Assembly: GCA_937910355.1 (NCBI GenBank)
Contig: CALEPA010000116.1
Location: 1-25,060 of the forward strand
Direction of reading: 5' to 3'
Length of the DNA stretch: 25,060 bases
From: an uncultured Fidelibacterota bacterium
GTDB lineage: Bacteria; Fidelibacterota; Marinisomatia; Marinisomatales; TCS55
The notes beneath the pieces were generated by a model, which saw only the letters and a program-made list of their open reading frames with translations, was not told the DNA's origin and did no database searches. Below are positions 4,216 through 23,584 of the stretch, one piece after another (the first letter of the stretch is position 1; the number at the start of each line of letters is the position of its first letter). The position numbers and the translations under genes were made by a program.

Positions 4216-5229
4216 TCAGTGAGCTACCGCAAAAGTTTTTGTATTAATGGAAAGTTTTGAATGTTTATTTTTATTCTTCTGTTCACTTAGCCATTCATAT
4301 GTTTTTACAATGCCAGTCTGTAAATTTGTCTTCGGAATCCATCTTAATGTTTTACGAATTTTTTCAATATTTAGAACTCTTCTTCGAATATTGTCAATAT
4401 CTCGCCTGTCAATATGTACTATTTTTGTGTGATTACCACATGTATCAATGATTATTTTTGCCAGATCATTGATATATGTTTCTCTGCCGGAACCCACATT
4501 AAAAACTTCGCCAATGGCTTTTGGTGAATGGGCGGCCAAGAGAGTGGCTTCAACAACATCCTCCACATAAGTGAAATCCCTTGTTTGATCTCCATCTCCG
4601 TGAATGTGGATATCCTTTTCCTCTATTGCATCGTTTAAAAATCTCGAAATAACGCCACAATAGGGATTCTCAGGGTTTTGTTTAATCCCATACACATTGG
4701 AGTATCTGACAATCGAAATTGGCAAATTATAAGTTTCGTAAAATGCGAAACAATAGTTTTCACCGGTTAGCTTGCTTGCTGCATAAGGATTTAGAATGTT
4801 TGTCCGGTCTATCTCATTAATTGGCAGATATAATGGGTTTCCATAAATTGAGGCGGAAGAGGAGAAAACAACTCTTTCGATGTTATGCTTTCTGGCTGAC
4901 ATGAGGATATTAAACATTCCACCTGCATTTACATTGAAATCAAGCTTCGGAGATTTGGTGGAAACAATGATATTTCTAACCGCAAGATTAAAGACAATAT
5001 CTACTTTACAAACTAATTGATCAACAAGTTTCTCATCTTCCACTGACCCTTTTATGAAAGTTATTTGATCAAGACAATCAATATTGTCTAAGTCTCCAGT
5101 AAACAAATTGTCCAAAACGATAACATTCGCTTCTTCTTTTACAAGTTGGCTTACGAGATTAGAACCAATAAAACCAGCTCCCCCTGCGACGAGCACATTC
5201 TTATTTAAGAATCTCATTTCATCCCTCAT
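4216..5229 (-). CDS. NAD-dependent sugar-nucleotide epimerase/dehydratase (extended SDR family)
   Basis: It has a Rossmann motif, VLVAGGAGFIGSNLV, and a catalytic YxxxK (YAASK). Its 337-aa length is typical for UDP-sugar 4-epimerase-like enzymes. Confidence 0.8.
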   Translation of the reverse strand: MRDEMRFLNKNVLVAGGAGFIGSNLVSQLVKEEANVIVLDNLFTGDLDNIDCLDQITFIKGSVEDEKLVDQLVCKVDIVFNLAVRNIIVSTKSPKLDFNVNAGGMFNILMSARKHNIERVVFSSSASIYGNPLYLPINEIDRTNILNPYAASKLTGENYCFAFYETYNLPISIVRYSNVYGIKQNPENPYCGVISRFLNDAIEEKDIHIHGDGDQTRDFTYVEDVVEATLLAAHSPKAIGEVFNVGSGRETYINDLAKIIIDTCGNHTKIVHIDRRDIDNIRRRVLNIEKIRKTLRWIPKTNLQTGIVKTYEWLSEQKNKNKHSKLSINTKTFAVAH

Positions 5230-5248
5230 GTTTGTAGGTTTTAGAATG

Positions 5249-6439
5249 TTAGTAAGAATTTTTTAATAGCAAGACCATAGGAATTGTATACAAGATTATT
5301 TTTATATCTAACATCAAATTCCAGTTTTCAGCATATCGAATATCATATCTCATTGCTTCGTCATAATTCACAGGTGTACACCGAAGATGAATTTTTGATA
5401 ACCCTGTAATTCCTGGTAAAACTTGCAGTCGCTTATAATACCACAATTGATATTTCTCTATCTCGTATATTGGGTGAGGTCTGGGGCCTACTAAACTCAT
5501 ATCACCTTTTAAAACATTCCATAACTGCGGAAGTTCGTCTAAGCTTGTTTTTCTTAAGATTTTTCCTGCCCAGGTAATTCGGGCGCTAATTTGTTTTTTG
5601 TATTTTTCCACCAAGTTCGTTTTCTTTATTGTTTCGCGTCCTTTCCCCAACAGGGTGTCAATATATTGTTTGTGGAGAGAATTGGAGTGACTTACTCTTA
5701 ATGTTCTAAATTTATATAAAATAAAAGTAGTGCCTTGATGGCCAATTCTTTCCTGTTTAAAAAGTATTGGGCCCGGAGAACTTATTTTTATCAATAGAAA
5801 AATTAATAAAAATAAGGGGGAAAAAAGTATCAAACCTACAATGGATCCAATTATATCTATTAAACGCTTTAGTAAAAATTGAATATACAAACTACTATCA
5901 GAGATATCTTCCAATAGGCTTATTCCAATTGTATTGTAAGCAATCACACCTATTCCCATTTGATATCCTTGAACTAAATATTTTTGCTTAAACGACAAAT
6001 CTTTTAAGAAATTAGTTTTAACTTCTATTGTTTTTTTTTGAATATTTGGTTTTTGGATAGAATTATCTAACGAATAAAAATCGTCGGCTGAGTTTGAGAC
6101 TTGAAAATCTAAATTTTTTACATTGATTTTTTCTTTAATTATTACTTTACTGAACTTTTTAATTGCAAGTTTAGCTTGCGCTTTGTTAGTATTTGCTAAA
6201 AGAATAAATATATTGTTGTTACCGACATAAAGTGTATCTGTCTTTCTAATTTGATGAGAAATTAAATTTCCAATTGTATTTAGTAACATTGCACTATTAG
6301 AATTATTTAGACTTCCATTGTTCCCTTGTATTCGAACAATTGAATAATGATGATTAAATCTTTCCAACCTATTTTGTTCAATATTCAGCCTTTCAATAAA
6401 GTAAGAATGGTCGTGAATTTTATCTATATTTGCAAACAT
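5249..6439 (-). CDS. Polyprenyl-phosphate sugar-1-phosphate transferase (initiating 'bacterial sugar transferase', PglC/WbaP C-terminal type) with an extra ~190-aa N-terminal cytoplasmic domain
   Basis: The C-terminal ~200 aa has one TM helix followed by ...PGPILFKQERIG..G..F..YKFRTL...SLDELPQLWNVLKGDMSLVGPRP..., the PF02397 hallmark. The N-terminal domain is unusual and is discussed in the findings. Confidence 0.8.
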   Translation of the reverse strand: MFANIDKIHDHSYFIERLNIEQNRLERFNHHYSIVRIQGNNGSLNNSNSAMLLNTIGNLISHQIRKTDTLYVGNNNIFILLANTNKAQAKLAIKKFSKVIIKEKINVKNLDFQVSNSADDFYSLDNSIQKPNIQKKTIEVKTNFLKDLSFKQKYLVQGYQMGIGVIAYNTIGISLLEDISDSSLYIQFLLKRLIDIIGSIVGLILFSPLFLLIFLLIKISSPGPILFKQERIGHQGTTFILYKFRTLRVSHSNSLHKQYIDTLLGKGRETIKKTNLVEKYKKQISARITWAGKILRKTSLDELPQLWNVLKGDMSLVGPRPHPIYEIEKYQLWYYKRLQVLPGITGLSKIHLRCTPVNYDEAMRYDIRYAENWNLMLDIKIILYTIPMVLLLKNSY

Positions 6440-6535
6440 ATTTTTCTCTTATTTGCCAAAATTCAAAAAAATACAGCTCCGCCATTTAAGTCACATAAAT
6501 GTGATATAGAATTTATGAATTAAAAACAGTGTCTT

Positions 6536-8959
6536 TTAATTGAAATAAATCTTTAAACCGACATTAGGTAAACGGGGCAAAGAATATCTTTTTTCTACAA
6601 TTGCATTGCCGTATTGATCTATGGAATAATCATGAAAATATAGAACATTTTTGTGGTTAAAAAGATTAATAACTTCTGCAAAAAATAAAAATTTACCCCA
6701 CTTTTTTTTAAATTCAGTGCTTATCCGTAAGTCAAATGTTATATACGGAGGATATTTTGCGGAATTTATGGTTCCTTTTTCAAATTCAAGTGTATTCTTA
6801 TTAAATTTTAGAGGGGTATATGAAAAGCCGCTTCCATAAATGTACTTAAAGCTTATTTTGATGCCCTTGTATAAATTCCAGCTATTAGCGAAAATGATTG
6901 TGTGCCTTTGATCATTATATCTATAATAATAAGGTATATTAATTCTTTTTTCTTTAGCAATAAGATAGCTGTAACTGATCAAAATATCTGTGAATGAAAA
7001 AGAATAAGAAAATTGGGTGTCAAATCCCTTAGAGAAACCTTTGGAATCGTTTTCTTTCGAAGAAATTATTCTGCCTGATATATTTTGTTTAGAAATAAGA
7101 TTGCTGTAATCCTTATAATAAATAGTTGTATTTAATATCAGCCTATTTTTTATATTCCAGTTTATTCCTAATATATAATGCATTGCTTTCTCATCTTTTG
7201 TGTTTTTTCTCGTCGGATATGGGTAATAGAGTTCATCAAAATAGGGAGACTGATAATAAACACCCCAGGAAAAAGAACTTTTCAGTTTATTTTTAATTGG
7301 GATTGAGATAGAAACTCGAGGGGATATATATAATCTTTTGTTCAATTCAAAATAATCAAGCCGTAATCCGAAATTTGAGAAAATTGATGAAGATATATGA
7401 AGATTGTGTTGTAAAAATCCTGATAATTTATAATAGGTTATATCGTTTTTGTGATTATTTATTTGTTGCTCGGTTGTATCTATCTTGAATAAAATATCAT
7501 CTATTTTTGAATCAAGATTAATACTTTTTTGGACAAAATTATTGTAATAATTATAATATTTACCTAAAATAATGGATATGCCGGATTCTATCTCTTGATT
7601 TTCTTGAATCTGTGTTAAAATTGAATTTTTAATTTGGAAATAAAATAATTTTGTAGAATTTGAATAATTGTTATTAAAGCACAATTTTTGAGTGCCAAGC
7701 TTTTCGTTTTTATGATCAAATAATACTCCATTTGATATGCTTTTTTTGTTTGAGAATTGAGTTTCTTTTTCATGCGAAAAAGATATGATATTTTTCATAT
7801 ATGATTTGGATGAAATCAAATATCTATGTTTTATACCAAACATATCGACTGAAGAATAATAGGACAAATTGGAAATTGTGGAATCTCGCCGAACCAAATA
7901 ATAGTCAGGCATTTTGCTTTTAAAGCCTTTAATTTTCGTGTGCATTGGCTCGGAATATTGATCTTTTGCGTTCAGATAGAAAAGCGATAAATTATGCCCA
8001 GGCGATATATTCAAATTCATTGTTCCGATAAAATCATAATAATCAGGAATTCCCTCGGATATAAATCTTTTTTTGCTTAAATTGAATCGATCTAAAATAT
8101 CCATCGCAAAGTGAAGATTGCTCCTATTTAAACTCAACATATAAGAAGCTTTTTTACCCAAAGGACCATTAATCAGAAGGTTTAAAAATGTTGGACTGAT
8201 TTCTATTAAAGATTTCATGTTTTTGGGGTTACCCTGCTTTAGGTGAATGTCCGACACGGAGGATAATTTATCGCCAAATTTGGCCGGGAATCCTCCATTG
8301 TAAAAGATCACCTTTTCTACAACATTAATATTGAAATAACTTATACTTGCAGTTGGCATCTCTTTTAAGTGAAATGGGTTGTGTATTTCCACGCCATTTA
8401 AATAGTATAAATTTTCATTACTTAATCCTCCCCTTGCAAAAAACTTACTTGATTTATTATTGTTTTCATTAACCCCAGGCAGCATTTGAATAGAACGATT
8501 TATATCATTTAGTGTGAATGGAACTTCTTTCATATAATTGCTATTTAGGATAGATCTACTTTTTTCCAGCTTTATTTTAGGATATTTATCCTTATTGGCC
8601 TTTTCTGAGAATACGATAACATTGGGCATTCGAAGTGCCCAAGGCACCAATTCGACATTCAGATAACAGGAATCTTGTGAATAGGTCGTTAAGTCTAAAT
8701 AAAATTTTTGTTTTTTATAACCAACCCGTGAGAATTCTATCTGGTACACTCCCTGAGGTAGTTCAATTTCAAAGCGGCCATTATTATCAGACATATCACC
8801 TTTTCTTTGGTCTATAACGCTTACATTTACAAGGCTTAATTTTTCATTTGTTTGTTTGTCCTTTACATAACCCCATACAACAATAAGATTTTTTGCAAGT
8901 CCAAGGGAAACTAATGAAGAAGTGAAAAACAAACAAATGAAAATTCTAAATATTTTCAT
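6536..8959 (-). CDS. TonB-dependent-receptor-like outer membrane protein (CarboxypepD_reg-like N-domain + plug + beta-barrel)
   Basis: It has a signal peptide. It has an N-terminal carboxypeptidase-regulatory-like beta-sandwich (VWGYVKD...NVSVID...DNNGRFEIELPQGVYQIEFSRVGYK). It has plug-like motifs (LPGV..., FARGG...NLYYLNGVEI, GGFPAKFGDKLSSVSDIHLKQG). The C-terminal half is long and rich in Tyr/Asn, consistent with a barrel. The gene overlaps the upstream Wzc gene by 4 bp. Confidence 0.55.
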   Translation of the reverse strand: MKIFRIFICLFFTSSLVSLGLAKNLIVVWGYVKDKQTNEKLSLVNVSVIDQRKGDMSDNNGRFEIELPQGVYQIEFSRVGYKKQKFYLDLTTYSQDSCYLNVELVPWALRMPNVIVFSEKANKDKYPKIKLEKSRSILNSNYMKEVPFTLNDINRSIQMLPGVNENNNKSSKFFARGGLSNENLYYLNGVEIHNPFHLKEMPTASISYFNINVVEKVIFYNGGFPAKFGDKLSSVSDIHLKQGNPKNMKSLIEISPTFLNLLINGPLGKKASYMLSLNRSNLHFAMDILDRFNLSKKRFISEGIPDYYDFIGTMNLNISPGHNLSLFYLNAKDQYSEPMHTKIKGFKSKMPDYYLVRRDSTISNLSYYSSVDMFGIKHRYLISSKSYMKNIISFSHEKETQFSNKKSISNGVLFDHKNEKLGTQKLCFNNNYSNSTKLFYFQIKNSILTQIQENQEIESGISIILGKYYNYYNNFVQKSINLDSKIDDILFKIDTTEQQINNHKNDITYYKLSGFLQHNLHISSSIFSNFGLRLDYFELNKRLYISPRVSISIPIKNKLKSSFSWGVYYQSPYFDELYYPYPTRKNTKDEKAMHYILGINWNIKNRLILNTTIYYKDYSNLISKQNISGRIISSKENDSKGFSKGFDTQFSYSFSFTDILISYSYLIAKEKRINIPYYYRYNDQRHTIIFANSWNLYKGIKISFKYIYGSGFSYTPLKFNKNTLEFEKGTINSAKYPPYITFDLRISTEFKKKWGKFLFFAEVINLFNHKNVLYFHDYSIDQYGNAIVEKRYSLPRLPNVGLKIYFN

Positions 8960-11355
8960 TTCCTGCTTAACCAGGACCGCAATAATTTTAATTTCTTCTT
9001 TTCGCGGTTATGATCGTCGTCGTAATAGTAATATTTATAATTATAATTATATCCATATGCTTTGGGTTTTTCGGCTTGATTATAAGCAAAACCAAGCAAT
9101 TTTGAACCGGTTCTCTCCAAATTTTGAATTGTTTTTTGAATGTCGTCAATTTTTGTTTGCTCTGCCTTGATTGTCAAGACTACTGCATCACAAATTGATG
9201 CTAACAAAATAGCATCGGAAACAGCTATAATTGGGGGAGAATCAAATATCAGAAGATCATAATTTTGTGTCATACTATTAATAATTTTTTTGAATATTTG
9301 CGAAGATAAAACATATGACGGGTTAGGAGGAATTTTCCCCGACGTGAATAAATGAAGATTCGGAATGCCGGTTTTTCGAATAATATCTTCAGTTGATTCA
9401 TAGATATATTGATCTATAAAATTAAGCAATTCGGATTTTGATCTGTTTTCATTAGTTATTATTTTTGATGTTAAAGTTATATGATTTTTTATTATTTTTT
9501 TATTAATAACCATATTTAGGTCTTTATTATTCTCAAAATTATCAATATCCGTATCTTTCATGACTTCATTTAAAGAAATGATGCTATTTACTAATCCGGG
9601 TTCTCGTTTTTGATTAAACAATAGATGCAACATAGGTCTTCTGAAGTCAGCATCAATTATTAGTGTTTTGATTCCTGACTGAGCCGCGGCTATAGAGAGA
9701 TTTGCGGCAATTGTCGATTTTCCTTCAGATGGATTGGAACTTGTAATTAAAATCTTTTTAAGCGGTTTATCCAGACTTGAAAATTGAATATTCGTTTTAA
9801 GAGTGTGAAAAGACTCTGAAATAGGAGATTTGGGATTAAGAATAGTAATTAGTGTTTTATCAAACTTGGTTTTATTTTTCTCCCCATTGTTCTTTTGAAT
9901 ATCTTTATTTCGAATAAATGGTATAGTAGCTAAAACACTTCTATTTGTTAAACTTTCTAGCTCCTCTGCAGATTTTACACTATCATTCATAAATTCAGTT
10001 ACAAAAATCCATGTGCCGCCTAATAACATTCCAACAAATAGGCCCAATATAATGTTTAATGCTTTTCTTGGTTCAATGGGTGAACCTGGTTTTCTTGCGG
10101 GGTCTATCACTCGAATATTCCCAATTTTTTGTGCTTGGGCTATTTTCATTTCTTCATATTTTTGTAATAACATGGTATATAATTGTTCATTTACATTTTT
10201 ATTGCGAATAAGGCGTGATAATTCTAATTCTTTTTCGGGTACCGATTTTAAGCTAAAATTATAATTATCTATAATTTTATGTAATGCAGCTTCTTGTGCT
10301 TTATATGTTTGAATTTCAATATCTAATGAAATTGTTTCTTCCAAAAATTTTTCTATCTGAGATATAGGATCAATAATATTTTGACCCTGTGCAAGCTTCA
10401 TGGTTTCTCGTTTTAAGTTTTCTTTTGTTTGTTCAATCTTATCCCTTAATTGAATCATTTTGGGATGATTCTTGGCATAGTTTTTAACTTTTAGCGTGGT
10501 ATATTGTATTTCCAAATCGACAAGACTTTCTTTTAATTTTTGAACCCAGGGACTGGTTACTTGTGTAATATTAGGAACTAGATCCTTCCTCTGCTTCTTG
10601 ATTTTTTCTTTAATATATTTTAGGCGACTTTCAGTAGATTCTCTGTTTGATTTCGTCTCATTTAAAAGGACCTCGGCGTTTGTAATTCGTTGAAAAATCT
10701 GAATAGATTCCTGATCTGGCGATATAGAAATCTTGTTTTTCTCCTTATAGTTCTTCAAAGCAATTTCAGCATTATCCAATTTTGATTTATATCTTTCCAA
10801 TTGTCCCTTAATCATTGTAATCGCATTGCTTGTTTCTTCTCTTTTTATTAATAAACTTCGTTTTTCAAGAACGTTAGTAATAGTATTTCCGATCAACATT
10901 GCAAGCTCCGGATCGGAAGCTTTTACTTTAATTTCAATAATATCTGAACCTTGTACAGGTTTTGCCGATATGTTTCCGTGAATCTTAGAGCTGATATATC
11001 TGATTTTATTGAAATTATTGGGTATTTCTTTAAAGTATGAAATTTTGCTACTATATCGTTTTGATAATTCTTTTGCCACATCATCAGCCAAAGATTTGCT
11101 CTTGATCTCTTCAATTTGATTTGCAATAAATGATTTATCATTTCTGAAAGAAAATGAATTGTTTACGGCAAACTGGCTCGCTTGCCGATCGAATAGAATT
11201 AATGTCGAGGATTGATAAATCGGGGTTGCGGTGCTATTGTAGTAAATAATGGGCAATAAAACTCCCAATAGACCGGCAATTAAAATCCATCTGTTATTTA
11301 GGATAATTTGAATATAATTATTCAAATTCATTTCATCATTTTTTTTGTTCTTCAT
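8956..11355 (-). CDS. wzc: Polysaccharide co-polymerase / tyrosine autokinase (Wzc/EpsB/GumC family, PCP-2a)
   Basis: It has an N-terminal TM segment plus a Wzz-like region, a long coiled-coil periplasmic segment and a second TM. The C-terminal BY-kinase carries Walker A (SSNPSEGKSTIAANL), A' (LIIDADFRRP) and B (LLIFDSPP). The tail is Tyr-rich: YGYNYNYKYYYY. Confidence 0.85.
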   Translation of the reverse strand: MKNKKNDEMNLNNYIQIILNNRWILIAGLLGVLLPIIYYNSTATPIYQSSTLILFDRQASQFAVNNSFSFRNDKSFIANQIEEIKSKSLADDVAKELSKRYSSKISYFKEIPNNFNKIRYISSKIHGNISAKPVQGSDIIEIKVKASDPELAMLIGNTITNVLEKRSLLIKREETSNAITMIKGQLERYKSKLDNAEIALKNYKEKNKISISPDQESIQIFQRITNAEVLLNETKSNRESTESRLKYIKEKIKKQRKDLVPNITQVTSPWVQKLKESLVDLEIQYTTLKVKNYAKNHPKMIQLRDKIEQTKENLKRETMKLAQGQNIIDPISQIEKFLEETISLDIEIQTYKAQEAALHKIIDNYNFSLKSVPEKELELSRLIRNKNVNEQLYTMLLQKYEEMKIAQAQKIGNIRVIDPARKPGSPIEPRKALNIILGLFVGMLLGGTWIFVTEFMNDSVKSAEELESLTNRSVLATIPFIRNKDIQKNNGEKNKTKFDKTLITILNPKSPISESFHTLKTNIQFSSLDKPLKKILITSSNPSEGKSTIAANLSIAAAQSGIKTLIIDADFRRPMLHLLFNQKREPGLVNSIISLNEVMKDTDIDNFENNKDLNMVINKKIIKNHITLTSKIITNENRSKSELLNFIDQYIYESTEDIIRKTGIPNLHLFTSGKIPPNPSYVLSSQIFKKIINSMTQNYDLLIFDSPPIIAVSDAILLASICDAVVLTIKAEQTKIDDIQKTIQNLERTGSKLLGFAYNQAEKPKAYGYNYNYKYYYYDDDHNREKKKLKLLRSWLSRK

Positions 11356-11358
11356 ATG

Positions 11359-11925
11359 CTAACCACTTATTCTTGAGTACCAATACCATACTTGTATAAT
11401 AATTGCTATTTGGGAAATGACCTTTATTATAGTTTGCCATTTGTACCAGGTGTTTTGTTTTACCATAACAACATCCCCTGGCTTCAAAACAGGCAATGAA
11501 TTTGAATTATTATTATTAAGATAGCTTTTAAGATTAACACGCATTATATTTTTTTCATATGGGTTTTCTTTGTGATTAGATGCTGTTTGTGGTTTTGAAA
11601 ATGTGGGAACTTCTTTTCTTGTTAAAGTGATGTTCTTAAGATTTGCGAATGCAGTTGGGCCCCCCGCTCTTGAAATTAACTCTAAAACATTTGTTCCGTC
11701 TGGCACTAAATATTCTCCTGGACGGGCCACTTCTCCCCATACATGTACTTGGATCATGAGTCTTTCCCCGGGGCCAATTTGGTATTGATCTAGCTGAGAT
11801 TGCTTTTCCTGGGGATATGTATTACTGAATGATAGCATGAGAATGACTAAAAAAATGATGGAATCAATAGTTCTCCATTTTGTTTCTGAGGCTTGCCTGG
11901 TCAGTCCCAATCTCAAAAATCTCAT
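11359..11925 (-). CDS. wza: Polysaccharide export outer-membrane protein (Wza/KpsD family, short form)
   Basis: It has a signal peptide, then ...PGERLMIQVHVWGEVARPGEYLVPDGTNVLELISRAGGPT..., and ...LKPGDVVMV at the C-terminus, which match Poly_export plus an SLBB domain. Its stop is 3 bp from the wzc start. Confidence 0.75.
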   Translation of the reverse strand: MRFLRLGLTRQASETKWRTIDSIIFLVILMLSFSNTYPQEKQSQLDQYQIGPGERLMIQVHVWGEVARPGEYLVPDGTNVLELISRAGGPTAFANLKNITLTRKEVPTFSKPQTASNHKENPYEKNIMRVNLKSYLNNNNSNSLPVLKPGDVVMVKQNTWYKWQTIIKVISQIAIIIQVWYWYSRISG

Positions 11926-11944
11926 TTTTTATCTTTTCCTATCC

Positions 11945-12322
11945 TCAGTTTAAATTATTACCATTAAGAACAATTAAATCCTTTAGGAATTTGTACTGAT
12001 ACAAATCAATGGGCTTTAAAAGACGCAACAAAATTCCTTCCTCCATAATGCGTTTGCTTTTTTCAAAGTCATCTTTCTCAGCAATATAAATAATCGGAAT
12101 ACGAGGGCGACTGCGCCTAATTATTTGAATCAACTCTTCTCCGGATAGCCCTTCAAGGTATTGATCTACAATGAGAAAATCATAATCATTATCAAGTATT
12201 TCTAAAATCACCTTGTGACCATGTCGGATAGTTTCAATTCTTAGGCTCTCTTTCTCGAAATATTTGACAATGTCAATTTCTAATTGCCGATCACACGTTG
12301 CAAGTAAAATTGATTTGGTCAT
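11945..12322 (-). CDS. Stand-alone CheY-like receiver (REC) domain protein, probably atypical or degenerate
   Basis: At 125 aa it has the (beta/alpha)5 receiver length. It conserves the phospho-acceptor-like Asp (FLIVDQ) and the Lys (LLKP). The N-terminal acidic pair reads LLATCD rather than the usual DD, and the Thr/Ser position is not obvious. It is the first gene of the polysaccharide operon. Confidence 0.5.
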   Translation of the reverse strand: MTKSILLATCDRQLEIDIVKYFEKESLRIETIRHGHKVILEILDNDYDFLIVDQYLEGLSGEELIQIIRRSRPRIPIIYIAEKDDFEKSKRIMEEGILLRLLKPIDLYQYKFLKDLIVLNGNNLN

Positions 12323-12369
12323 TTTAAACCTTTTATACGGTAAGTATTAGGCCTTTTAGTCGTCATAAG

Positions 12370-12384
12370 TCAATTTCCATGCCA
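12370..12384 (-). promoter_or_regulatory. Candidate sigma54 (-24/-12) promoter for the polysaccharide operon
   Basis: The minus strand reads TGGCATG-gaaa-TTGA against the consensus TGGCACG-N4-TTGCW. The GG-to-G spacing is correct and the site lies about 50 bp upstream of the REC gene start codon. The -12 position has A instead of the near-invariant C, so this is tentative. Confidence 0.25.
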
Positions 12385-12510
12385 GACGTTATTGCTTTCG
12401 TAACATATTGATAATTAAAGTAATTAATTTAATCGGCTTTTGGGAATGAAAGGGAAATTGTAACGAAGATGAAACTTTTTGGAATCTTGCGGTCTTTTGT
12501 GTGGATATAA

Positions 12511-12530
12511 ATGTAACAATTATGTTACAT
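12511..12530. promoter_or_regulatory. Perfect 8-4-8 inverted repeat ATGTAACA-atta-TGTTACAT, a candidate dimeric transcription-factor or enhancer site
   Basis: The palindrome was read directly from the sequence. It lies about 140 bp upstream of the candidate -24/-12 element and about 190 bp upstream of the operon start codon. A further TGTAAC half-site is at 12559-12564. Confidence 0.35.
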
Positions 12531-13190
12531 TTGAAACATTTGCTTAACAAGTGATGCTTGTAACTGGAGGCATTGGAAAAGATTGTTTCAATCGGAGAAG
12601 AATAATATTTAATACCATCCAGTTTTACAAATCGTGACTAAAGATTAAAATGCAGAAATCAACCTATTAAAACAGCGATTTTGAAGTAGTCGTTATTGCC
12701 AGTTTTTTTGCACCCTACATCTCATTTGAATTCAGATCAGGTTATAGGAAATCAGTTTAACGGCCAGGTGCAGGGTTATCTTGTTCAACTCGATGCTTGA
12801 CAGGTCCGACAATCCGAGGAAATTTTCTTTGTCAAACCAGAATTCAACCTCATCGATTTGAATATGTTTCGATGGCCTCTTCCCCGGTTTTGCCATCATC
12901 ATTGGTGAGGCAGCCGTAAAGTGTCCGTACTCTGTCCGCAATCTCATCTACCATAATGAGTCGTACAGCTTCGCAATAATGGCAGATTTTGGTTTTGACG
13001 GAGGTCACTCCCAATGTGGCTGTTAACCGCCGAAATGACTCCAACGGGATTTTGTCTATTATTAGAATATTCTATCGATAGCTTCTTAATAGATTTCAGG
13101 GGTAATAAATCCCGCTTCAAAATCGCTGTAAATGTAATACAATTCTGGTATTGACATTCCGGGATAAATAAGGTGTTGTTATCTTCCGGG

Positions 13191-13210
13191 AGACTAAGAG
13201 AGTCTTTTTA
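13191..13210 (+). terminator. Short hairpin followed by a T-run (AGACT-aagag-AGTCT-TTTTT), intrinsic-terminator-like, reading on the plus strand
   Basis: It is visible in the sequence. The stem is only 5 bp. There is a perfect TTGACA about 40 bp upstream (13151-13156) but no convincing -10 element. There is no annotated plus-strand gene here. Confidence 0.15.
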
Positions 13211-13256
13211 ATTCTAACAATCGGACGCTTTATTTACGGATGGGATTTCGTAAAAT

Positions 13257-14603
13257 TCATTTTACATTTACGCCCACCTCATACTTTTTCATCCGGTACA
13301 GGAGCACATGCCTGGGAATCCCCAGAAATTCTGCGGCTCTGGTCTTGTTCCCATGGGATTTCTGCAGTGCGTTTTCGATGGCTTGTTTTTCAATTTCAGG
13401 GAGTGTCTCTCGGGGAACAGCAGAAAAAGCGCGCGTCCCTTTACCGGTCCGCACCTCCTGTGCCAATAAATTTGAACTAATCCTTTGATCCGGACTGAGT
13501 ACAATTACGCGCTCAATCACATTTTCCAGTTCCCGCACATTTCCGGGCCAATCGTACGCTTCCAGAAAGGTCAATACGTCCGGATCTATTTTATATTTCA
13601 CTCCGTTGCCGTGTTTCTGGATGAAGTGATGGACGAGCGGCACAATGTCCTCCCGTCTCTCCCGCAACGGCGGTATTTCAATTGGGAGCACGCGCAGACG
13701 ATAGTACAAATCCTCACGAAATGAGCCCTCAGCGACCATTTGGTCCAGATTTTTATTGGTCGCCGCCACAATACGCACATCCACAGAAATGGGCCTGTTT
13801 TCTCCAACCCGTTCAATCTCCCGCTCCTGCAGCACGCGAAGCAGTTTGGCCTGCAAATCAACCTTCAAATCCCCAATCTCATCCAAAAACAACGTCCCGC
13901 CATTTGCCATTTCAAATTTTCCCTGCCGGTCCTTCATCGCTCCCGTAAACGCGCCTTTCACATGCCCGAATAATTCACTTTCTATTAATTGCTCCGGGAT
14001 AGACGGGCAATTCACCGTCACAAAAGGACCGTTTTTTCGGGGACTATTCACATGAATGGCTCGCGCAAGCAGCTCTTTTCCCGTACCGCTTTCGCCGAAA
14101 ATAAACACCGTGGAGTCACTGAGGGCGACACGAGTCGCCATTTGAATCAGCGTCTCCATCACCGGACTTCTTCCCACCAGACGTTCAAATCCGAATTTTG
14201 TGGAAACCTCCATTTTTAACCGGCGATTTTCCTGCCTGAGCTGCCTGAATTGAAGCGCTTTCTCGATGACAAACCGCATGGCTTCCTTTCCAAAAGGTTT
14301 GATCAGGTAATCATCCGCCCCGATTTTTGAAGCTTCCACGGCGCCGTCCACAGAACCATATGCCGTAATAATTATAAAAATAATATTTTTATCAATTTTT
14401 CGAACTTCCCGCAGAACTTCCATGCCGGTCATTCCCGGCATATTTATGTCTGATAAAATCACCTCATGGTCACCGGATTTAAACTTTCGCAGTCCTTCCT
14501 CACCGGAAAGAGCGATTTCCACCCGAAATCCCATTTGTTTGAGTTGGTGGGCAATCACACGACAAAGGCTTTCGTCATCATCGATAATTAAAATTCGAGT
14601 CAT
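13257..14603 (-). CDS. Sigma54-dependent response regulator (NtrC/Fis family bacterial enhancer-binding protein: REC + AAA+ + Fis-type HTH)
   Basis: The REC domain has DDDES and the phospho-acceptor ILSDINMPGM. The AAA+ domain has Walker A GESGTGKE, the sigma54-contact GAFTGA loop and Walker B LFLDEIGDL. The C-terminus has a Fis-type HTH (TRAAEFLGIPRHVLLYRMKKY). No histidine kinase gene is adjacent. Confidence 0.9.
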   Translation of the reverse strand: MTRILIIDDDESLCRVIAHQLKQMGFRVEIALSGEEGLRKFKSGDHEVILSDINMPGMTGMEVLREVRKIDKNIIFIIITAYGSVDGAVEASKIGADDYLIKPFGKEAMRFVIEKALQFRQLRQENRRLKMEVSTKFGFERLVGRSPVMETLIQMATRVALSDSTVFIFGESGTGKELLARAIHVNSPRKNGPFVTVNCPSIPEQLIESELFGHVKGAFTGAMKDRQGKFEMANGGTLFLDEIGDLKVDLQAKLLRVLQEREIERVGENRPISVDVRIVAATNKNLDQMVAEGSFREDLYYRLRVLPIEIPPLRERREDIVPLVHHFIQKHGNGVKYKIDPDVLTFLEAYDWPGNVRELENVIERVIVLSPDQRISSNLLAQEVRTGKGTRAFSAVPRETLPEIEKQAIENALQKSHGNKTRAAEFLGIPRHVLLYRMKKYEVGVNVK

Positions 14604-14710
14604 TTTTTCTTCCTCTGATTTTTAACCATATTAACAAAATTACACCTTACGGGGTGTGCTAAATTAAATTTGTTTTTCATTCCTAAATTCGTGCCAGCGG
14701 TACAACGTTT

Positions 14711-17700
14711 TTACCCGCTGTTTCCGCTGGTACGCGCCATTTTTAAAAAATAAGAGAGTAAGATTCTCTGCTGCTCCTGCGTGAGCGCTTCTTCATCCAA
14801 TTTTAAAATTTTCTCCATATCGCGAAGTGCCAGCAGCACCTCTTCGGGAATGTCCTTCATCGTTTCCGGAAGGTAGAGCAAAAACTGAACTGCCGTGAGC
14901 AGAAACTGCCGCATGCTGTCGTCCACAATATTGCGCAGCATGTCATTAATCTGGGTTGCCAGCCGGGTTACGCGCCCCCGGGAAACGCCGCTGCCGCGCA
15001 ATTGAAATGCGGCTTCACGCGTGAACAGCGATTTAACCGCCTTTGCCAGCTCGATGAAACTTCTCACCTGTTCGGAAATAGGCTTCTCAAGCATCTCCCA
15101 CATCTTTTTCCTGCTCTCACCAATAATACGCCGTTTGTCAAATTCTTCCTGAAATGCCCTGCGCCACTTTTCAGACAGCCGATTCGCAGGAAAAGCGGCA
15201 TCCGCTTCCCAGTTGAAAATATCCCGCTGTAAAAGGACTGCCAAATCAGGACGTAGGTACGGAAGCAGTTCATCGATTTTTTTTCGGCAGGGAATTTGCC
15301 CTTTTGTTAAAACGCCGCTTTTGCGCAGCAGCTCTTCCTGAAACAGAGGGATAAAATCTTTTAAAATCGATTGTTCTTCCTTCAAAGCTTTTAGTGCTGA
15401 ATTACCCGGAGGAAACGCATCTTCGATTCGTTTTAAAAAAATCAGATCCGGATCGTGATATAAACGCAGTGTGTTTAAAATATCGCGAACCGGCAGGTGC
15501 GGTAAAATATGCAGCCGGAATTGCTCTGTCCGCTTCGCACCCTCCATTTCCAGAAATTGATACAAAGACAAGAACAAACCTGTCGTAAATTGGTTTACTC
15601 CCAGCAAAAATGTCTGCGCCTTGTTATGTCCGATTGCCCGAAGCATGGTGCCGTGTGTGGCCAGGGGCAGTGTATTAGACAGGCGTTCCAGAATTTCACG
15701 GCTCCTGTCCAGGACCGGCTCTCTGCTGGGACGCACGGTCGGACGATCCCGCAGGGGCAAAAGTGTGCGGGACAGAAAATAAGACACCACATGGATGCCG
15801 GTCATGTCTTCGGGCCGGCCATAAACAATCTGCGTAAAATTGGATTTAACATAATCCAAAAATTCCACGAATATTTCATCATCTTCACGGCGAACCACAG
15901 AGCTCAGCTTTTGCCAGACGGCCGGATCACTCTCGGGAAGCTGCGAAGCTTTTACAAAGACGCGGTTCCAGTAGTCAACCTGTTTGGTACGGATGTTGTG
16001 AAATACATCGGCCAGCTCTCCCGCGGGGAGGTTTCGCAGCCGTTCCATCACATTGGACTGGAATGTACGGAAATCACTGTGACTCAAAATGCCCATCAAT
16101 GGAGAACGCGCTCGCCGAAAGGAACGCAATTCCAGGGCATCCATTTTTGATTGAAACGCTTCGTTTGCAAACACTTCATCCCGGAACACCGGACTTCCGC
16201 CGGTGGGATCGTAGTACCCCCCCTGACGCTGCGGCGATTCCCCTGATCCGAATTTGATCCGAATTTTGCCCAACAAGTCTTTCTTCCACATCCAGCGATT
16301 AAGCAGATCGCGGGCATCCTGATACAATGAATACGCTTTAAGCTGTCCCACCTGCTGGCTGAGATCCGAACCGGCAATGAAAAATTCACCCATAATCTCA
16401 CAGAATCGATCTTGCGGCCGCTGCCTTAATTTTCGGCTTTTTTCGGCATATTCCCAGATTTCATCCAAAAATTCAGGAATTTTCTGAATGGCCTCCAACT
16501 CCTCAAAGAGCGGCACAATTCGAATATCCGGTAAATTGAGCTCAGGATTTTTGTGTAACACCCGTTCCTTTTCTTCACAAAGTTTCCGGTAAAGTGTCAA
16601 AATGGCATGCGGATTGCCGGCCATGCTGACCTGAATAGCCAGCACCAATCCCTCGTACCCGTACAAACTTCCCAGAACATTTAATTCAACAAGATTATAA
16701 ACCGTAGTGTTAACCGTAAATTGATCTTTATCTAAAATGATTTTTTGGTGAATTCTGGGCGTCAGGTAAAACCGTTTTAAATAATTTTTGTAGAAGCTCA
16801 TAAAGAAAAGCCATTTTTCAGATTGCAGTTTTTCCCGATTGCGAAGCGTCACGTCTTTCGCAATCCGGATAAGCGTCTGATTGATCTCAAACAACCGCCT
16901 CATTTCAGACGAACGCTGCCGGCGGTATTGCTGCATCCGGCGTTCATTCCGGTCGTTATGTTTCCAGAGTGTTTTCAGCGGATCGCGCAGAAGCCTCAAT
17001 TTTCGTAAAAAACGCTTCAATCTTCCGATGGCATATTCCAGCGGAATCGTTTTTCGGTATTTTTCTTCCAGACGGCTGGTTAACTGAGTGATTTTTTGCA
17101 GAATTTTTCGGAAATTTTCGATCTGTTTCTCAATGGATCCAATCGCCTGCAAGGCACGTTCTTCATCCTGTGTTAATAATTGTTCATTTTGAAAGAGTTT
17201 AATCTGCAGCGCCAGCGCCCGAATATTGGCAATTAAAGGGCCTGAGATCAACGTGTGCCCTTGACCGCTGGGCCGGGTGCTGCCGTCCCAATCACCCCAG
17301 AACGACAGGGCGATGTGTTCACTTTCACCGGTAAAAATCTCGCCATAATTTTCTGCAAGGTGCAGCGCTTCAAAATCGCATACAACTTCCTCAGCTTCCA
17401 TCTGAGAAGAGATCGGCACATTTTCTCCCACGAATTCGTACACCAATTCCCGAAAGAGTTTTGAAACGGGAACAGATTCATATATTTCAGGAAGAACGCT
17501 GTTTTTTGCCATCTGTATGAAAAGCTGCTCCACACGAATCGAGTACATCTGCGTCGGATGAACCGTCCGGTCAAACAGGCGCTTCGTAAATTCGTCTCGT
17601 CGACTTTCAAGATCTTCGCCGTGCAGTTCCTGAAGAAACTTCCGGAACAGGGTTTCCCTGAAAACAGGATGTTTCTGTTTTAAACGAACCGCTTCCTTTA

Positions 17701-20359
17701 ATATCAACAAGTCCTGCATCTTATTTTCAAGAAACTGCCAACGCCGGGGCAGAAAATAGCTTAAGAAATCATCCAACACATTCGCTTGTTTCAATTCATC
17801 ATTTGTCCGGCGGGGAAGTGTTTGATAAAACCTCTTCTCCGCAAGTTTTTGGACAGTTTCATATAATTGAACTGTTTTTTGACGGAAAATATCCGACGGC
17901 TTTTGAGTGGAAAAAGTCCTGACCGCGTCTTTTAATAAATCTGTTCGAGGCAGGCGATGGTAATAATAGTTTTCGGCCTGTTTTCTAATCTGTTCGGTTA
18001 ATTCTTCCATCAGGCGCCGAATTTTTAGGGGAATTTCCTTTATCTCCAATTCACCCCCCAGGGTCAAACGGAAAGTCCGATTCGCCAGGTTAAAGCCCTC
18101 CACCGTACGGGAAAAATTAGTCATCGGAATAAGCCCGATTCCCTGATGCGCCAGTTGAAAGGCCAGCTTTTCAATTTGAACCACAGCCGGCATTTTTTGA
18201 ACCGCCAATTGCGGATACATGGCCCCCTGCGGCGGCAAAAAACGTATCTTGTAAGGATTGATTTCATCCGGCAAAGCCTCAAAAGCCTCCTGAATCGCAC
18301 AGGACCGCTGCCACAAAATCCAATCCCGCATCCGCCAAAAAAAGGACACTTTTTCCTGCCCCCTGCGATAAAAAAGGGTGCTCATGAGAATGGCCATTAA
18401 ATTGGGTCGAATATGGGACAGCCTCGCCTGAAATTTTTGGCGTGAGGCCGGATCCGGAATTTCGCAAACGGCCAATCTTGCACCCGCCTTGCAATCGGTT
18501 TTAGAAATCGACTGAAGCGTAATCAAATTCCGCAGGTGCGATTCCCGAAGCTTACCCTTTCCGAGAGCCGTCACGGCAATCTTTTTCAGGCTTCTGACCG
18601 GCACTTTTTCGGCCCTGATTTCCGGAGATTCGATCACCACGTCGGAATAAGACAAATCATCGATCACACGAATTCCACGCTGCAGACAATAAATCAGGAT
18701 CTTCTCCACATCTTGCTCGTCCCAGATTTTTCCGGTGGCATTCTGCGGATTATTCCAGATTACAATGCCTGTGTTTCGCCAATCGGAATCGGCCGCCAAC
18801 TTTTGTTCCAGCACCGAAATAAATCGATCCGGATTAATTTGTAAATCCTCGTTTAACGGCACGGCCGTCACATGCGGAAAAGCATCCCCGACTGTCCAGC
18901 TAAAATCGGGGATGATGACGTCCTGAATCCTCCACGCTTCTGCCATTGTGCTGAGCCCTGTCCGGGCCGACCCGCTGACGGGCACCAGGTGAGCCGGATC
19001 ATATTCCGGATGAAGATTTTGAAAGACCGATAAAAAGGAGCGCGTCAGGGTCTTCTGCCATTCTGAATCGTTTAGATTTGTAAAAAACTGAAGCAGTATT
19101 TCAGCCTGCTGTTTTCCTGAAAAAGGGTCCGGCAAGGCTCTGTTTAGCTGTTTCCCCCGAAAAAAGGAAACCGTTTTTTCAAGTCCCACCCCCAGGATTT
19201 CGGATGCTTTTGAAAAATGTCCAACCATTTGCTGAACATCCGCCGCAATTTCCTCAACAGTCTCCGCCGCGCCCCGCAAAACGCCGGGAAACCTTCCGGC
19301 CACTGCAAAATTTTCATACTCCGAAAAATCATCAGCCGGACTCGGGATGTCAAATCGGCGTTTATTTTGGCCCCGCCGGCTCAAATCGAATGTGCCGTCC
19401 TCATTCAGGAAGAAATCCAACAGTTTAATTTCACTTGCGGGAGGAGTCCCCATCTTCTTAAAATGCCTGCGGTTGAAGGCTTCGATGATTTCAGCCGGTC
19501 CCAGTAAAAAGGCAAGGCTGGAATATTTCAATTCGGGATGGATAATCTCCGGCGACAGAATTCGAACCATTCGCGTCTTCGTCCCGCGGACTGCGGAGAG
19601 ACTTTCGGAAGATGCCGTCTGATTCACTTCAATCAAAAAGATGCGTTTTTCCAAAAGCAATCGACTTAAACGTCTGCGATGACTTTCTTCAAATTTTTTG
19701 TGCAGCACCATGAATCCGACGGACTTTGAACCTTCGGACGCAAAAAAGCTTTCTAATTTCTGAATTTGAGAAGAACCCTCCGTGTCAAAAAATAACACTT
19801 CTCCCGGATATCTTTCATGCACTTCCGGGACTTCCGGAGCGCCCACAACCAGAAGCGTTTTTCGAGGGGTTTCTGCCTGCTCAAAAAACATCTGCAAAAG
19901 TATTTTTAGAGCCTGCCAACGCCCGCCGGAAGCCATAGCAAATTCCGGGGCGGTGTTATTTTTCGAGAAATTGTATCGTACCGGTGTTTTGGGGCTGTCA
20001 TTGAAAAAAACGGCCAGTTTACGAGTGAGTGTCCCCGGATTTTTAGGCGAGAATCCCCCGGCCGGCGCGTACGAGACGGATTTGCGGGATGTCTCGAACA
20101 GAAGCCGGAAATAGGATTGAATATCCGCATCGTCAAGCGATTGGAAAAACACTTTTTCATCGAAATCCCCGGCAGTCAGGCCGGAAAAATCGTCTCCCGA
20201 AAGAATCGCGTTGTACAGGCGATTCAACGCCTCATCCTGAACCGGATTGCCGATATGAAAATTCACTCGGCTTTTGGGATCCACGCCCGCTTCCGCCGTC
20301 AGTTGACTAATTTCTCCGACCAGCGGCGGAGAGCTTTTTTTAAGTTTCAAAAATGTCAT
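14711..20359 (-). CDS. Giant (1882 aa) multidomain protein: two tandem PLP-dependent aminotransferase-fold (class I/II) units fused to a C-terminal phosphoenolpyruvate-carboxylase (PEPC)-fold module with non-canonical catalytic motifs
   Basis: It is a single uninterrupted ORF. Aminotransferase unit A spans about aa 30-330 (NFHIGNPV, YAPAGG...LTRKLA, GGRWQALKILLQ...TLLVVGAPEVPEV) and has no Schiff-base Lys. Aminotransferase unit B spans about aa 400-800 (VSGSARTGL...DVIIPDFSW, IWNNPQNATG matching xNPxNPTG, IDDLSY, and SISKTDCKAGARLA matching SxSK..GxR). PEPC-like motifs run from about aa 900 to the C-terminus: DRTVHPTQ (cf. TAHPTE), SFWGDWDGSTRP (cf. WMGGDRDGNP), QVSMAG (cf. VISMA), IVPLFEELE (cf. 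APLFETLDDL), MGEFFIAGSD (cf. MIGYSDS), KFGSGESPQRQGG (cf. FHGRGGSIGRGG), LRAIGHNKAQTFLLG (cf. LRAIPWIFAWTQNRL), and a terminal ...SGNSG (cf. ...MRNTG). The ORF call is confident. The domain reading is from memory of family motifs only. Confidence 0.6.
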   Translation of the reverse strand: MTFLKLKKSSPPLVGEISQLTAEAGVDPKSRVNFHIGNPVQDEALNRLYNAILSGDDFSGLTAGDFDEKVFFQSLDDADIQSYFRLLFETSRKSVSYAPAGGFSPKNPGTLTRKLAVFFNDSPKTPVRYNFSKNNTAPEFAMASGGRWQALKILLQMFFEQAETPRKTLLVVGAPEVPEVHERYPGEVLFFDTEGSSQIQKLESFFASEGSKSVGFMVLHKKFEESHRRRLSRLLLEKRIFLIEVNQTASSESLSAVRGTKTRMVRILSPEIIHPELKYSSLAFLLGPAEIIEAFNRRHFKKMGTPPASEIKLLDFFLNEDGTFDLSRRGQNKRRFDIPSPADDFSEYENFAVAGRFPGVLRGAAETVEEIAADVQQMVGHFSKASEILGVGLEKTVSFFRGKQLNRALPDPFSGKQQAEILLQFFTNLNDSEWQKTLTRSFLSVFQNLHPEYDPAHLVPVSGSARTGLSTMAEAWRIQDVIIPDFSWTVGDAFPHVTAVPLNEDLQINPDRFISVLEQKLAADSDWRNTGIVIWNNPQNATGKIWDEQDVEKILIYCLQRGIRVIDDLSYSDVVIESPEIRAEKVPVRSLKKIAVTALGKGKLRESHLRNLITLQSISKTDCKAGARLAVCEIPDPASRQKFQARLSHIRPNLMAILMSTLFYRRGQEKVSFFWRMRDWILWQRSCAIQEAFEALPDEINPYKIRFLPPQGAMYPQLAVQKMPAVVQIEKLAFQLAHQGIGLIPMTNFSRTVEGFNLANRTFRLTLGGELEIKEIPLKIRRLMEELTEQIRKQAENYYYHRLPRTDLLKDAVRTFSTQKPSDIFRQKTVQLYETVQKLAEKRFYQTLPRRTNDELKQANVLDDFLSYFLPRRWQFLENKMQDLLILKEAVRLKQKHPVFRETLFRKFLQELHGEDLESRRDEFTKRLFDRTVHPTQMYSIRVEQLFIQMAKNSVLPEIYESVPVSKLFRELVYEFVGENVPISSQMEAEEVVCDFEALHLAENYGEIFTGESEHIALSFWGDWDGSTRPSGQGHTLISGPLIANIRALALQIKLFQNEQLLTQDEERALQAIGSIEKQIENFRKILQKITQLTSRLEEKYRKTIPLEYAIGRLKRFLRKLRLLRDPLKTLWKHNDRNERRMQQYRRQRSSEMRRLFEINQTLIRIAKDVTLRNREKLQSEKWLFFMSFYKNYLKRFYLTPRIHQKIILDKDQFTVNTTVYNLVELNVLGSLYGYEGLVLAIQVSMAGNPHAILTLYRKLCEEKERVLHKNPELNLPDIRIVPLFEELEAIQKIPEFLDEIWEYAEKSRKLRQRPQDRFCEIMGEFFIAGSDLSQQVGQLKAYSLYQDARDLLNRWMWKKDLLGKIRIKFGSGESPQRQGGYYDPTGGSPVFRDEVFANEAFQSKMDALELRSFRRARSPLMGILSHSDFRTFQSNVMERLRNLPAGELADVFHNIRTKQVDYWNRVFVKASQLPESDPAVWQKLSSVVRREDDEIFVEFLDYVKSNFTQIVYGRPEDMTGIHVVSYFLSRTLLPLRDRPTVRPSREPVLDRSREILERLSNTLPLATHGTMLRAIGHNKAQTFLLGVNQFTTGLFLSLYQFLEMEGAKRTEQFRLHILPHLPVRDILNTLRLYHDPDLIFLKRIEDAFPPGNSALKALKEEQSILKDFIPLFQEELLRKSGVLTKGQIPCRKKIDELLPYLRPDLAVLLQRDIFNWEADAAFPANRLSEKWRRAFQEEFDKRRIIGESRKKMWEMLEKPISEQVRSFIELAKAVKSLFTREAAFQLRGSGVSRGRVTRLATQINDMLRNIVDDSMRQFLLTAVQFLLYLPETMKDIPEEVLLALRDMEKILKLDEEALTQEQQRILLSYFLKMARTSGNSG

Positions 20360-20383
20360 TTAAGGGTGCATTTACGTCTATCA

Positions 20384-21346
20384 TTAATCTTTTTGGGCGG
20401 TTTTCGCCGGCTGAATAGCCTCTAACAACGATTGCAAAATCTTCGGCAATCCGTTATAAATTTCGGGGGAAAATGTGACAATCGTACGCGCGCTTTTTAA
20501 TTGCTGGCTGGCTTCTACCAATCGTGTGAGCTGCGGGGTTAGCATAATAAGTTCAGGATGTTTGCTGAGCAATTCGACTTCCTCTTTTTCCAATTCCAGC
20601 GACAGGCGTTTTTTCTCCGTCTCTTTTTCAAGCAGCTTCCGCTCTAATTCAGCCGCTTTTAATTCCTCTATTTCTTTCAATTTGAGATGCTCCATCTCCA
20701 TTTGGTGCTTGAGATGAGCAATTTCATCATCAGCTTTCAACTTCAATTTCTCAGTGGCAATTCGAGACTGCTGATTTGCTTTTTCCGTGGCCTCTTGAAT
20801 GTGGGCTTCTTCCTGCTGCCGGATGGCATCGGCGATTTTCTTGTCCGCGGCTTCCGCTTCGGAAACAACCACAGATGTCACGGTAACCCCAAAATTGTGC
20901 GCCAATTCCCCGAGATGTTCTCTCAGCAATTGGGCTAATTTCTCACGAGAGACCTGCGTAATTTCCAGTGTTTCCACCAATTCGCCCACCAGACCCTGAA
21001 CGGTGCCCGACAATTCTTCTGCCACTTTGTCCACGGCTTCCGAGGTCCATCCTCCGATACGCACCAGATTCTCCGCACGATGCGGATCAGGATAAAATGA
21101 GACGGAAAGTTTAATCACAACACCGATTTTGCCCTGTGCCTGTGTTTTAACTTCGGTTGAAATCGTTTTCATTGTGGCCGGCAGCGCCAACACCGATTTT
21201 GAAACGTACCATCGCTTCAGATAGGGTTGAATTTTTCCGTGTTTTTCAATCAGCAGCAATTGATCGGGACGGCGAACTTTAAAGGAAACCACAACAAGGA
21301 TTACCAATAAGACAATAAAAGCGATTAAAATTAGCCACAAAACCAT
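20384..21346 (-). CDS. SPFH/band-7 (flotillin/prohibitin-like) membrane protein with a C-terminal coiled coil
   Basis: It has an N-terminal TM helix (VLWLILIAFIVLLVILVVV) and an SPFH-like core (...ISTEVKTQAQ...VVIKLSVSF...). The C-terminus is a long Glu/Lys/Leu-rich coiled coil. The ORF table starts it at a TTG at 21421. An in-frame ATG (MVLWLIL...) at about 21346 is preceded 6 nt upstream by a GGAGGA Shine-Dalgarno and is the likelier start. The displayed sequence and the ORF table disagree by one base there, so the coordinate is uncertain by 1 nt. The stop is 24 bp before the giant gene start, which suggests co-transcription. Confidence 0.7.
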   Translation of the reverse strand: MVLWLILIAFIVLLVILVVVSFKVRRPDQLLLIEKHGKIQPYLKRWYVSKSVLALPATMKTISTEVKTQAQGKIGVVIKLSVSFYPDPHRAENLVRIGGWTSEAVDKVAEELSGTVQGLVGELVETLEITQVSREKLAQLLREHLGELAHNFGVTVTSVVVSEAEAADKKIADAIRQQEEAHIQEATEKANQQSRIATEKLKLKADDEIAHLKHQMEMEHLKLKEIEELKAAELERKLLEKETEKKRLSLELEKEEVELLSKHPELIMLTPQLTRLVEASQQLKSARTIVTFSPEIYNGLPKILQSLLEAIQPAKTAQKD

Positions 21347-21565: not shown

Positions 21566-21575
21566 TTTTTGCGTA

Positions 21576-22250: not shown

Positions 22251-22259
22251 AGGATTAAA

Positions 22260-23543: not shown

Positions 23544-23584
23544 CGAAGCAATGATTGCAGAAGTAAAAACAAAATTAGTACGCT

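Follow-up and report, generated by a model that had tools for sequence, protein, structure and literature searches.

The analysed stretch of DNA (25,060 nucleotides, in the following called the window) has a GC content of about 31% in positions 1-12700 and of about 47% in positions 13250-25060. Its low-GC part is taken up by a single minus-strand cluster with all genes in the same direction, which the original prediction had described as a polysaccharide operon next to the gene of a sigma-54 activator. The operon is indeed present, but the gene at its head encodes a receiver-only response regulator of 125 aa and no polysaccharide enzyme. Besides the genes listed below the cluster contains those for a TonB-like outer-membrane protein, a priming sugar transferase, an epimerase, a T9SS-tail protein and a DUF354 protein, all on the minus strand. 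The features of the locus are the following:

1230-11925, minus strand: co-directional polysaccharide genes, as a group
8956-11355, minus strand: Wzz-GNVR tyrosine kinase gene
11359-11925, minus strand: gene of the SLBB/Wza-like exporter
11945-12322, minus strand: first gene of the operon, receiver-only response regulator (125 aa)
12384-12370, minus strand: sigma-54-type -24/-12 element TGGCATGGAAATTGA
12401-12413, minus strand: IHF-like site TATCAATATGTTA at about -55 to -43, matching WATCAANNNNTTR perfectly
12459-12476, minus strand: Box 2, AGTTTCATCTTCGTTACA, centre at about -110
12512-12529: Box 1, TGTAACA-N4-TGTTACA, the core of the palindrome, centre at about -162
12532-12549, minus strand: Box 0, TGTTAAGCAAATGTTTCA, centre at about -182
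12672-13129: stretch of 458 bp with about 43% GC, separating the regulator gene from the putative enhancer boxes
13130-13256: 127 bp shared by both strain variants
13249-13266, minus strand: box-like TGTAAAATGAATTTTACG, a near-perfect TyrR-type box over the stop codon of the regulator gene (13.0 bits)
13257-14603, minus strand: gene of an NtrC/AtoC/ZraR-type enhancer-binding protein (REC-AAA+-HTH_8)

The cluster does not end with the window: NODE_1125, a longer contig from this strain, adds Wzy-like, glycosyltransferase and flippase genes, and the total length of the cluster taken from the window and NODE_1125 exceeds 20 kb. Using a search of a 5.8-billion-protein database we found only four other homologue clusters of the 125-aa receiver, with 77-86% identity, and all five receiver clusters head the same receiver-SLBB-Wzz type of operon. 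A metagenome scan with the alignment of the receiver proteins revealed no further relatives, and a metagenome scan with a 41-nt block pattern gave no further matches. Within the polysaccharide cluster a gap of 333 bp holds the near-palindromic sequence TTGGCAAAATTTGTGCAA (2530-2547), which has a sigma-54-like score on both strands.

The -24/-12 element upstream of the receiver gene

A -24/-12-like element with correct spacing and a mismatch at the -12 C had been predicted upstream of the first operon gene and is present as described. Its GG (-25/-24, at 12383/12382) and the G at -13 (12371) are exactly 10 nt apart in a TGGCAY-N5-TTG context (TGGCATGGAAATTG, 12384-12371), and these bases are invariant in the five lineages compared below. 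The C at -12 that would complete the GC doublet of a sigma-54 promoter is replaced by an A at 12370. From the TGG of the element to the ATG at 12322 the distance is 62 nt, and a start predicted from the position of the element at about 12358 would give a 5' UTR of about 36 nt.

A plain consensus search allowing two mismatches yielded 23 matches in the window versus 18 expected, which is not significant. As this crude count was not informative, we built a weight matrix from the 52 published sigma-54 sites in the S2 table of PMC12316311. With this matrix the element scores 14.0 bits and is the second-best match in the window; the only better match (15.2 bits, 18476-18494, plus strand) is without the -24 GG and lies inside an ORF of 1882 aa. 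The element outscores 14 of the 52 published sites when these are scored by leave-one-out, and in simulated low-GC sequence such matches occur at a rate of 0.145 per 12.7 kb on both strands. The published-site matrix supersedes a first matrix, with which the element had ranked only sixth in the window. A C at -12 is absent from 7 of the 52 published sites, including those of E. coli pspA and pspG (TTGT) and three from D. baculatum (TTGA) (PMC12316311), and its absence here is thus not disqualifying. It does count against sigma-54 that the homologous elements in the other lineages reach only 6-10 bits with the published-site matrix, and the main blemish of a sigma-54 reading is the base at -12, where four of the five lineages have an A, one has a G and none has a C.

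Putative enhancer boxes, IHF-like site and their conservation

The perfect 8-4-8 inverted repeat ATGTAACA-atta-TGTTACAT that had been noted about 140 bp upstream of the element was found at 12511-12530 with its centre 138 bp from the -24 GG, and it extends to a perfect 10-4-10 repeat, AAATGTAACA atta TGTTACATTT (12509-12532). The extra TGTAAC reported together with it occurs at 12459 and at 12559, and 4 of the 10 TGTAAC/GTTACA copies of the window fall in 12323-12671. In simulated intergenic regions of 934 bp a palindrome with 8-nt arms, as first described, is found in 14% and one with 10-nt arms in 0.5% of the cases, a rarity that has to be read with the caveat that perfect palindromes with 10-nt arms are over-represented in the window as such (5 observed versus about 0.5 expected). 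The four others are located at 11305-11328, 10254-10279, 8935-8961 and 21426-21451; one of them lies at the SLBB/Wzc gene junction and one between a Band7 and a DtxR gene.

The exact symmetry of the palindrome proved to be particular to the strain and is lost in relatives (L097, TGTAACAagaaTGTAACA; L100, TGTTACGacatTGTTACA). What is conserved is a box of 18 bp, TGTWA-N8-TWACA, which is present in three copies in all five lineages with start-to-start spacings of 20 and 53 nt. The palindrome corresponds to the middle one, Box 1, which has the top score with the box matrix and in which TGT-N12-ACA is invariant in the five lineages while the inner bases of the arms vary. Box 0 starts 20 nt upstream of Box 1. 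Box 2 contains the TGTAAC half-site of the original prediction and is degenerate in the window and stronger in L097, L100 and L101.

For the comparison of lineages we aligned the regions upstream of the receiver gene from the window, L091, L097, L100 and L101, and found conserved islands in an otherwise divergent sequence. One of these islands is the promoter element, TGG-AT--AA-TTG (TGGYAT-N5-TTGR), which is invariant in all five lineages at 62-66 nt before the ATG; 10 of its 15 columns are invariant versus about 17-20% of the columns overall. The individual elements read:

Window: CTGGCATGGAAATTGAC
L091: TTGGCATATAATTTGAC
L097: TTGGTATGAAAATTGAT
L100: TTGGCATATAATTTGAG
L101: TTGGTATGAAAATTGGT

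Four of the five lineages possess, 29-30 nt before the TGG, a site with at most one mismatch to the IHF consensus. The lineages also have in common a block of about 45 bp (TTGTTAA..AAATGT..CA..TGT.A....A.T.T.ACATTT), whose distance to the TGG varies by only 3 nt, and Box 1 lies 145-148 nt from the TGG in all five. Putative activator sites in the range of about 80-200 bp upstream, separated from the element by an IHF-like site as often in sigma-54 promoters, are found with conserved spacing, in a comparison that comprises only five lineages, all fairly close to each other.

Elements of the same kind precede a second operon for YHS-domain, OEP and RND efflux proteins in L092 and L097, where TGGCATAA-N3-TTGA is found about 55 nt before the ATG:

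L092, 7581-7595, minus strand: TGGCATAAATTTTGA
L097, 1967-1981, minus strand: TGGCATAACTATTGA

The sequence upstream of this YHS/efflux operon is otherwise unrelated to that of the polysaccharide operon and shows no -10 box. Two unrelated operons, the polysaccharide cluster and the YHS/efflux operon, carry near-identical TTGGCATA-N4-TTGAC cores. That the lineage uses a shifted sigma-54 consensus at -12, TTGA instead of TTGC, is a rather doubtful proposal; were it true, a co-adapted -12 recognition surface would be expected in the RpoN of this lineage. The conserved non-C at -12 makes a small addition to the variation of sigma-54 promoters outside Proteobacteria.

The adjacent regulator and the strain-variable junction

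The NtrC-type gene lies upstream of the operon and ends 934 bp before its first gene, a distance originally given as about 900 bp. According to Pfam its product consists of a REC domain, a sigma-54 AAA+ domain with GAFTGA at residue 217 and HTH_8, as in the NtrC family. The identical protein, from an unclassified bacterium, is named 'ZraR [bacterium BMS3Abin05]' at NCBI, the nearest named relatives come from Calditrichota and KSB1 (57-60% identity), and the protein scores under every NCBIfam equivalog cut-off. Membership in the PrsR/PEP-CTERM system was rejected, with 418 bits versus the cut-off of 503 for TIGR02915 and with no exosortase found in the window or on NODE_1125. A search of the genome contigs with the regulator gave one close relative (L011, an incomplete contig) and otherwise distant paralogues. 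No kinase gene is located near the REC-type regulator. Its orthologues with 73-76% identity lie directly behind a HisKA kinase gene and away from polysaccharide genes, and one of them originates from the same JGI sample as the operon homologue L098.

A regulator with 100% identity is also encoded in L003, L004, L007 and L009, where the match to the window stops at 13130. Past this position these contigs, in the following called variant B, carry other low-GC genes, encoding T9SS-tail proteins and different glycosyltransferases. The two variants share the 127 bp at 13130-13256 and diverge at 13129/13130 (10229/10230 in L003), which is exactly the end of the 3' flank of the regulator gene. The polysaccharide locus is thus variable between strains, and its boundary abuts the regulator gene. 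The arrangement of the window is real, since its junction recurs without change in L005 (5.6 kb, 99.96% identical) and in L010. In a sample that also holds variant B the contig of the operon terminates with an overlap of 127 bp, which is the expected signature of a branch in the assembly graph. A seemingly third arrangement in L002 (ERZ1742236 NODE_15943) was discarded, its first 114 nt being Illumina adapter fused to genomic DNA. At the junction the GC content shifts from 47% to 31%, and one arm of a 29-nt inverted repeat has its outer end there.

Variant B possesses a homologous receiver-led operon on the same 51-kb contig, at its far end and beside the gene of a different activator, of the PAS-AAA-HTH_8 type. 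Furthermore, the first gene downstream of its REC-type regulator is preceded by a sigma-54-type site, TGGAATGCATGTTGCA, which scores 15.6 bits, has a perfect match to the IHF consensus 41 nt upstream and lies 63 nt from the ATG.

The stretch of 458 bp between the junction and the boxes is bounded by imperfect inverted repeats of 29 nt with a perfect core of 15 nt, ACAGCGATTTTGAAG. It holds two overlapping small ORFs of 64 and 71 aa, for which no homologues were found in Pfam, NCBIfam or the protein database. Searching Rfam gave only one sub-threshold snoRNA match (19 bits versus a gathering threshold of 60, E = 0.2), which we take as chance, and the compared loci contain no second copy of the stretch. 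It could be a MITE-like insertion, the relic of a gene or an invertible segment. An invertible promoter switch was considered and found no support, as the stretch has one orientation in all four assemblies and the window encodes no invertase. A 107-bp gap on the upstream side of the regulator gene contains TGGCACGAATTTAGG (14682-14696, minus strand), in which the -24 half is perfect and the -12 half (TAGG) poor; this could reflect autoregulation or chance.

Promoter reading, candidate activators and known systems

The original prediction of a sigma-54-type promoter with an upstream activator site at the head of the operon is supported by the elements, which are conserved in four other lineages, whereas its assignment of the adjacent regulator as the controller is not supported. 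From the elements, their statistical rarity and the conservation of their sequence and spacing across lineages we infer sigma-54 dependence, the start site and the binding of an activator, and we regard it as likely that a sigma-54 promoter with enhancer boxes drives the receiver-led polysaccharide cluster. In this model the long Wzx/Wzy-type cluster would be transcribed from an RpoN promoter, TGGCAT-N5-TTGA (12384-12370, minus strand), at which RNA polymerase with sigma-54 would wait as a closed complex. An AAA+ enhancer-binding activator would assemble on the three 18-bp boxes near -182, -162 and -110 and would be brought to the polymerase by an IHF-like AT-rich bend at about -50, and ATP hydrolysis by the activator would then lead to opening of the promoter. 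Both types of activator encoded in these loci keep GAFTGA, and the occurrence of two GAFTGA activators in this family of loci makes the presence of rpoN likely.

Transcription of the operon from a sigma-70 promoter, with TTGACT as the -35 box and the boxes as operators of an ordinary repressor or activator, appears improbable to us. The TTGACT within the element could serve as a -35 box since the lineage uses ordinary sigma-70 boxes, as seen at dctP with a canonical and conserved TTGACT-17-TATATT in L097 and L100, and candidates for a complete promoter can be found in the window (TTGACT-18-TAATAC) and in L091 (TTGACT-17-TAATAT); the lack of the -12 C expected of sigma-54 would fit as well. However, the -10 candidate is not conserved and reads TGGATG in L097 and L102, and no sigma-70 promoter is conserved by position across the compared upstream regions. 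Moreover, the invariant TGG 11 nt upstream of the TTG would have no function in a sigma-70 promoter, boxes 110-180 bp upstream are far for a classical operator, and the YHS operon shares TGGCAT-N5-TTGA yet is without a -10 box. A canonical-looking sigma-54 site upstream of dctP in L097 was dismissed, as it is not conserved in L100 and dctP has the conserved sigma-70 promoter instead. Even less credible, and very improbable in our view, is that the motifs arose by chance in AT-rich DNA or that the palindrome serves termination or recombination and has nothing to do with the control of the promoter. The result of the simple consensus search and the frequency of palindromes with 8-nt arms in the simulations would agree with chance, but the conservation of both elements and of their distance in five lineages largely refutes it. 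As a terminator the AT-rich hairpin would be without a T-run, and a terminator scan calls none there; recombination might be suspected from the strain-variable junction and the stretch flanked by inverted repeats nearby, but the variable junction is 600 bp away.

If, as we prefer, the operon depends on sigma-54, the question of its activator arises. The adjacent orphan regulator had been proposed as the controller, and this is not supported by the comparison, for co-localisation of regulator and operon is not conserved across relatives. It is rather unlikely that the adjacent REC-AAA-HTH_8 regulator (13257-14603) binds the palindrome and switches on the operon. Its gene adjoins the operon on the same strand, GAFTGA and a phosphorylatable receiver are intact, and the gene that comes next downstream is preceded by a sigma-54-type promoter in either strain variant. 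The stop codon of the regulator gene is overlapped by the box-like TGTAAAATGAATTTTACG; when about 126 kb of related sequence were scored with the box matrix, no site other than those in the operon promoters ranked higher. On the other hand, the identical regulator precedes unrelated genes in L003, L004, L007 and L009, its orthologues are paired with a histidine kinase and not with polysaccharide genes, and four other lineages have the operon and the conserved boxes without it; in the window the sharp GC break, the strain-variable junction and the foreign-looking stretch of 458 bp separate it from the operon. As its neighbours differ in variant B and in the other lineages, we consider the adjacency of regulator and operon to be a feature of one strain variant, with the gene probably being there by accident of a strain rearrangement.

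The PAS-AAA-HTH_8 enhancer-binding protein, acting in trans in the strain of the window, is at least as good a candidate as the adjacent REC-type regulator and may tentatively be named as the activator. In the four other lineages (L092, L094, L097-L099 and L100) its gene precedes the operon at a distance of 0.3-2.6 kb. The protein has an intact GAFTGA, and its HTH (GNITKVA-AGLSRVTIYRML) hardly varies between lineages, like the boxes. In addition, the NCBIfam TyrR profile aligns with its PAS, AAA and C-terminal regions, and the boxes resemble those of TyrR and GcsR in layout. Yet its score with this profile is 270 versus a cut-off of 576, a comparison of its DNA-binding domain with solved structures gives no match specific to TyrR, and the protein is known from related loci and not from the genome of the strain in the window. 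Its gene is also transcribed divergently from dctPQM or the YHS operon, and these might be the real targets; its own upstream region has a different conserved palindrome, TGTAT-N8-ATACA. This palindrome (L097 5739-5756 and a homologous site in L100, between dctP and the gene of the PAS-type activator) is related to the operon boxes and distinct from them. What remains of the probability after these two candidates falls to another activator.

In its architecture the preferred sigma-54 promoter would resemble the nifH, glnAp2, Pu and pspA promoters, with TGG and TTG triplets at the exact sigma-54 spacing, several helically spaced activator sites, here 110-180 bp upstream, an IHF-consensus site between these and the promoter, and GAFTGA activators, here encoded in the locus. 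It differs from standard sigma-54 promoters in its -12 base, which is A (G in one lineage) and never C. Control of exopolysaccharide genes by sigma-54 is widespread and well documented (Francke et al. 2011, PMC3162934), and like the loci described there the present one combines an operon for Wza/Wzc-type export and biosynthesis with a sigma-54-type promoter and an NtrC-family gene nearby. Unlike PEP-CTERM/PrsR loci, the window has no exosortase or PEP-CTERM components, and the operon is headed by a receiver-only protein.

The boxes themselves are similar to those of TyrR, PhhR and GcsR. The TyrR box has been described as TGTAAA-N6-TTTACA, and the sigma-54 activator GcsR uses three 18-bp copies of TGTAACG-N4-CGTTCCG with 7-bp arms and a 4-bp spacer (PMC4894688). 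Here, too, three copies of 18 bp with 7-bp arms, a 4-bp spacer and TGT-N12-ACA are located upstream of a sigma-54-type promoter, and Box 1 is a perfect match to the TyrR/GcsR-type pattern TGTAA(A/C)-N6-(T/G)TTACA (PMC4894688). The PAS-type activator is without the ACT domain of the TyrR family (ACT-PAS-AAA-HTH) and scores under the family cut-off. TyrR-family identity found no support for the DNA-binding domain of either activator, the structure matches being of the NtrC4 and Fis types. Thus the resemblance to TyrR and GcsR describes how the boxes probably work and does not assign a family.

For an uncultured bacterium from deep-sea sulfide deposits the analysis gives a concrete and testable regulatory map of its main surface-polysaccharide locus, consisting of a promoter, a bend and three boxes. 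It also calls for caution, as a regulator gene that adjoins a sigma-54 promoter is not necessarily that of the activator of this promoter. A sigma-54-controlled exopolysaccharide operon would be of a kind already known, and mildly unusual are the non-C at -12 in two operons, the junction and the stretch of 458 bp.

Two further observations concern the part of the window beyond the regulator gene. The ORF of 1882 aa (14711-20359, minus strand) upstream of the regulator has a central class I/II aminotransferase domain (residues about 504-766) as its sole recognisable part, the remainder giving no family match. Near the end of the window, at 23706-24140 and 24648-25016, an IS200-like Y1 transposase gene is followed by 2.5 tandem copies of a 145-bp repeat, and more diverged copies of this repeat, identified from matches in L004, reach back to about 24300.
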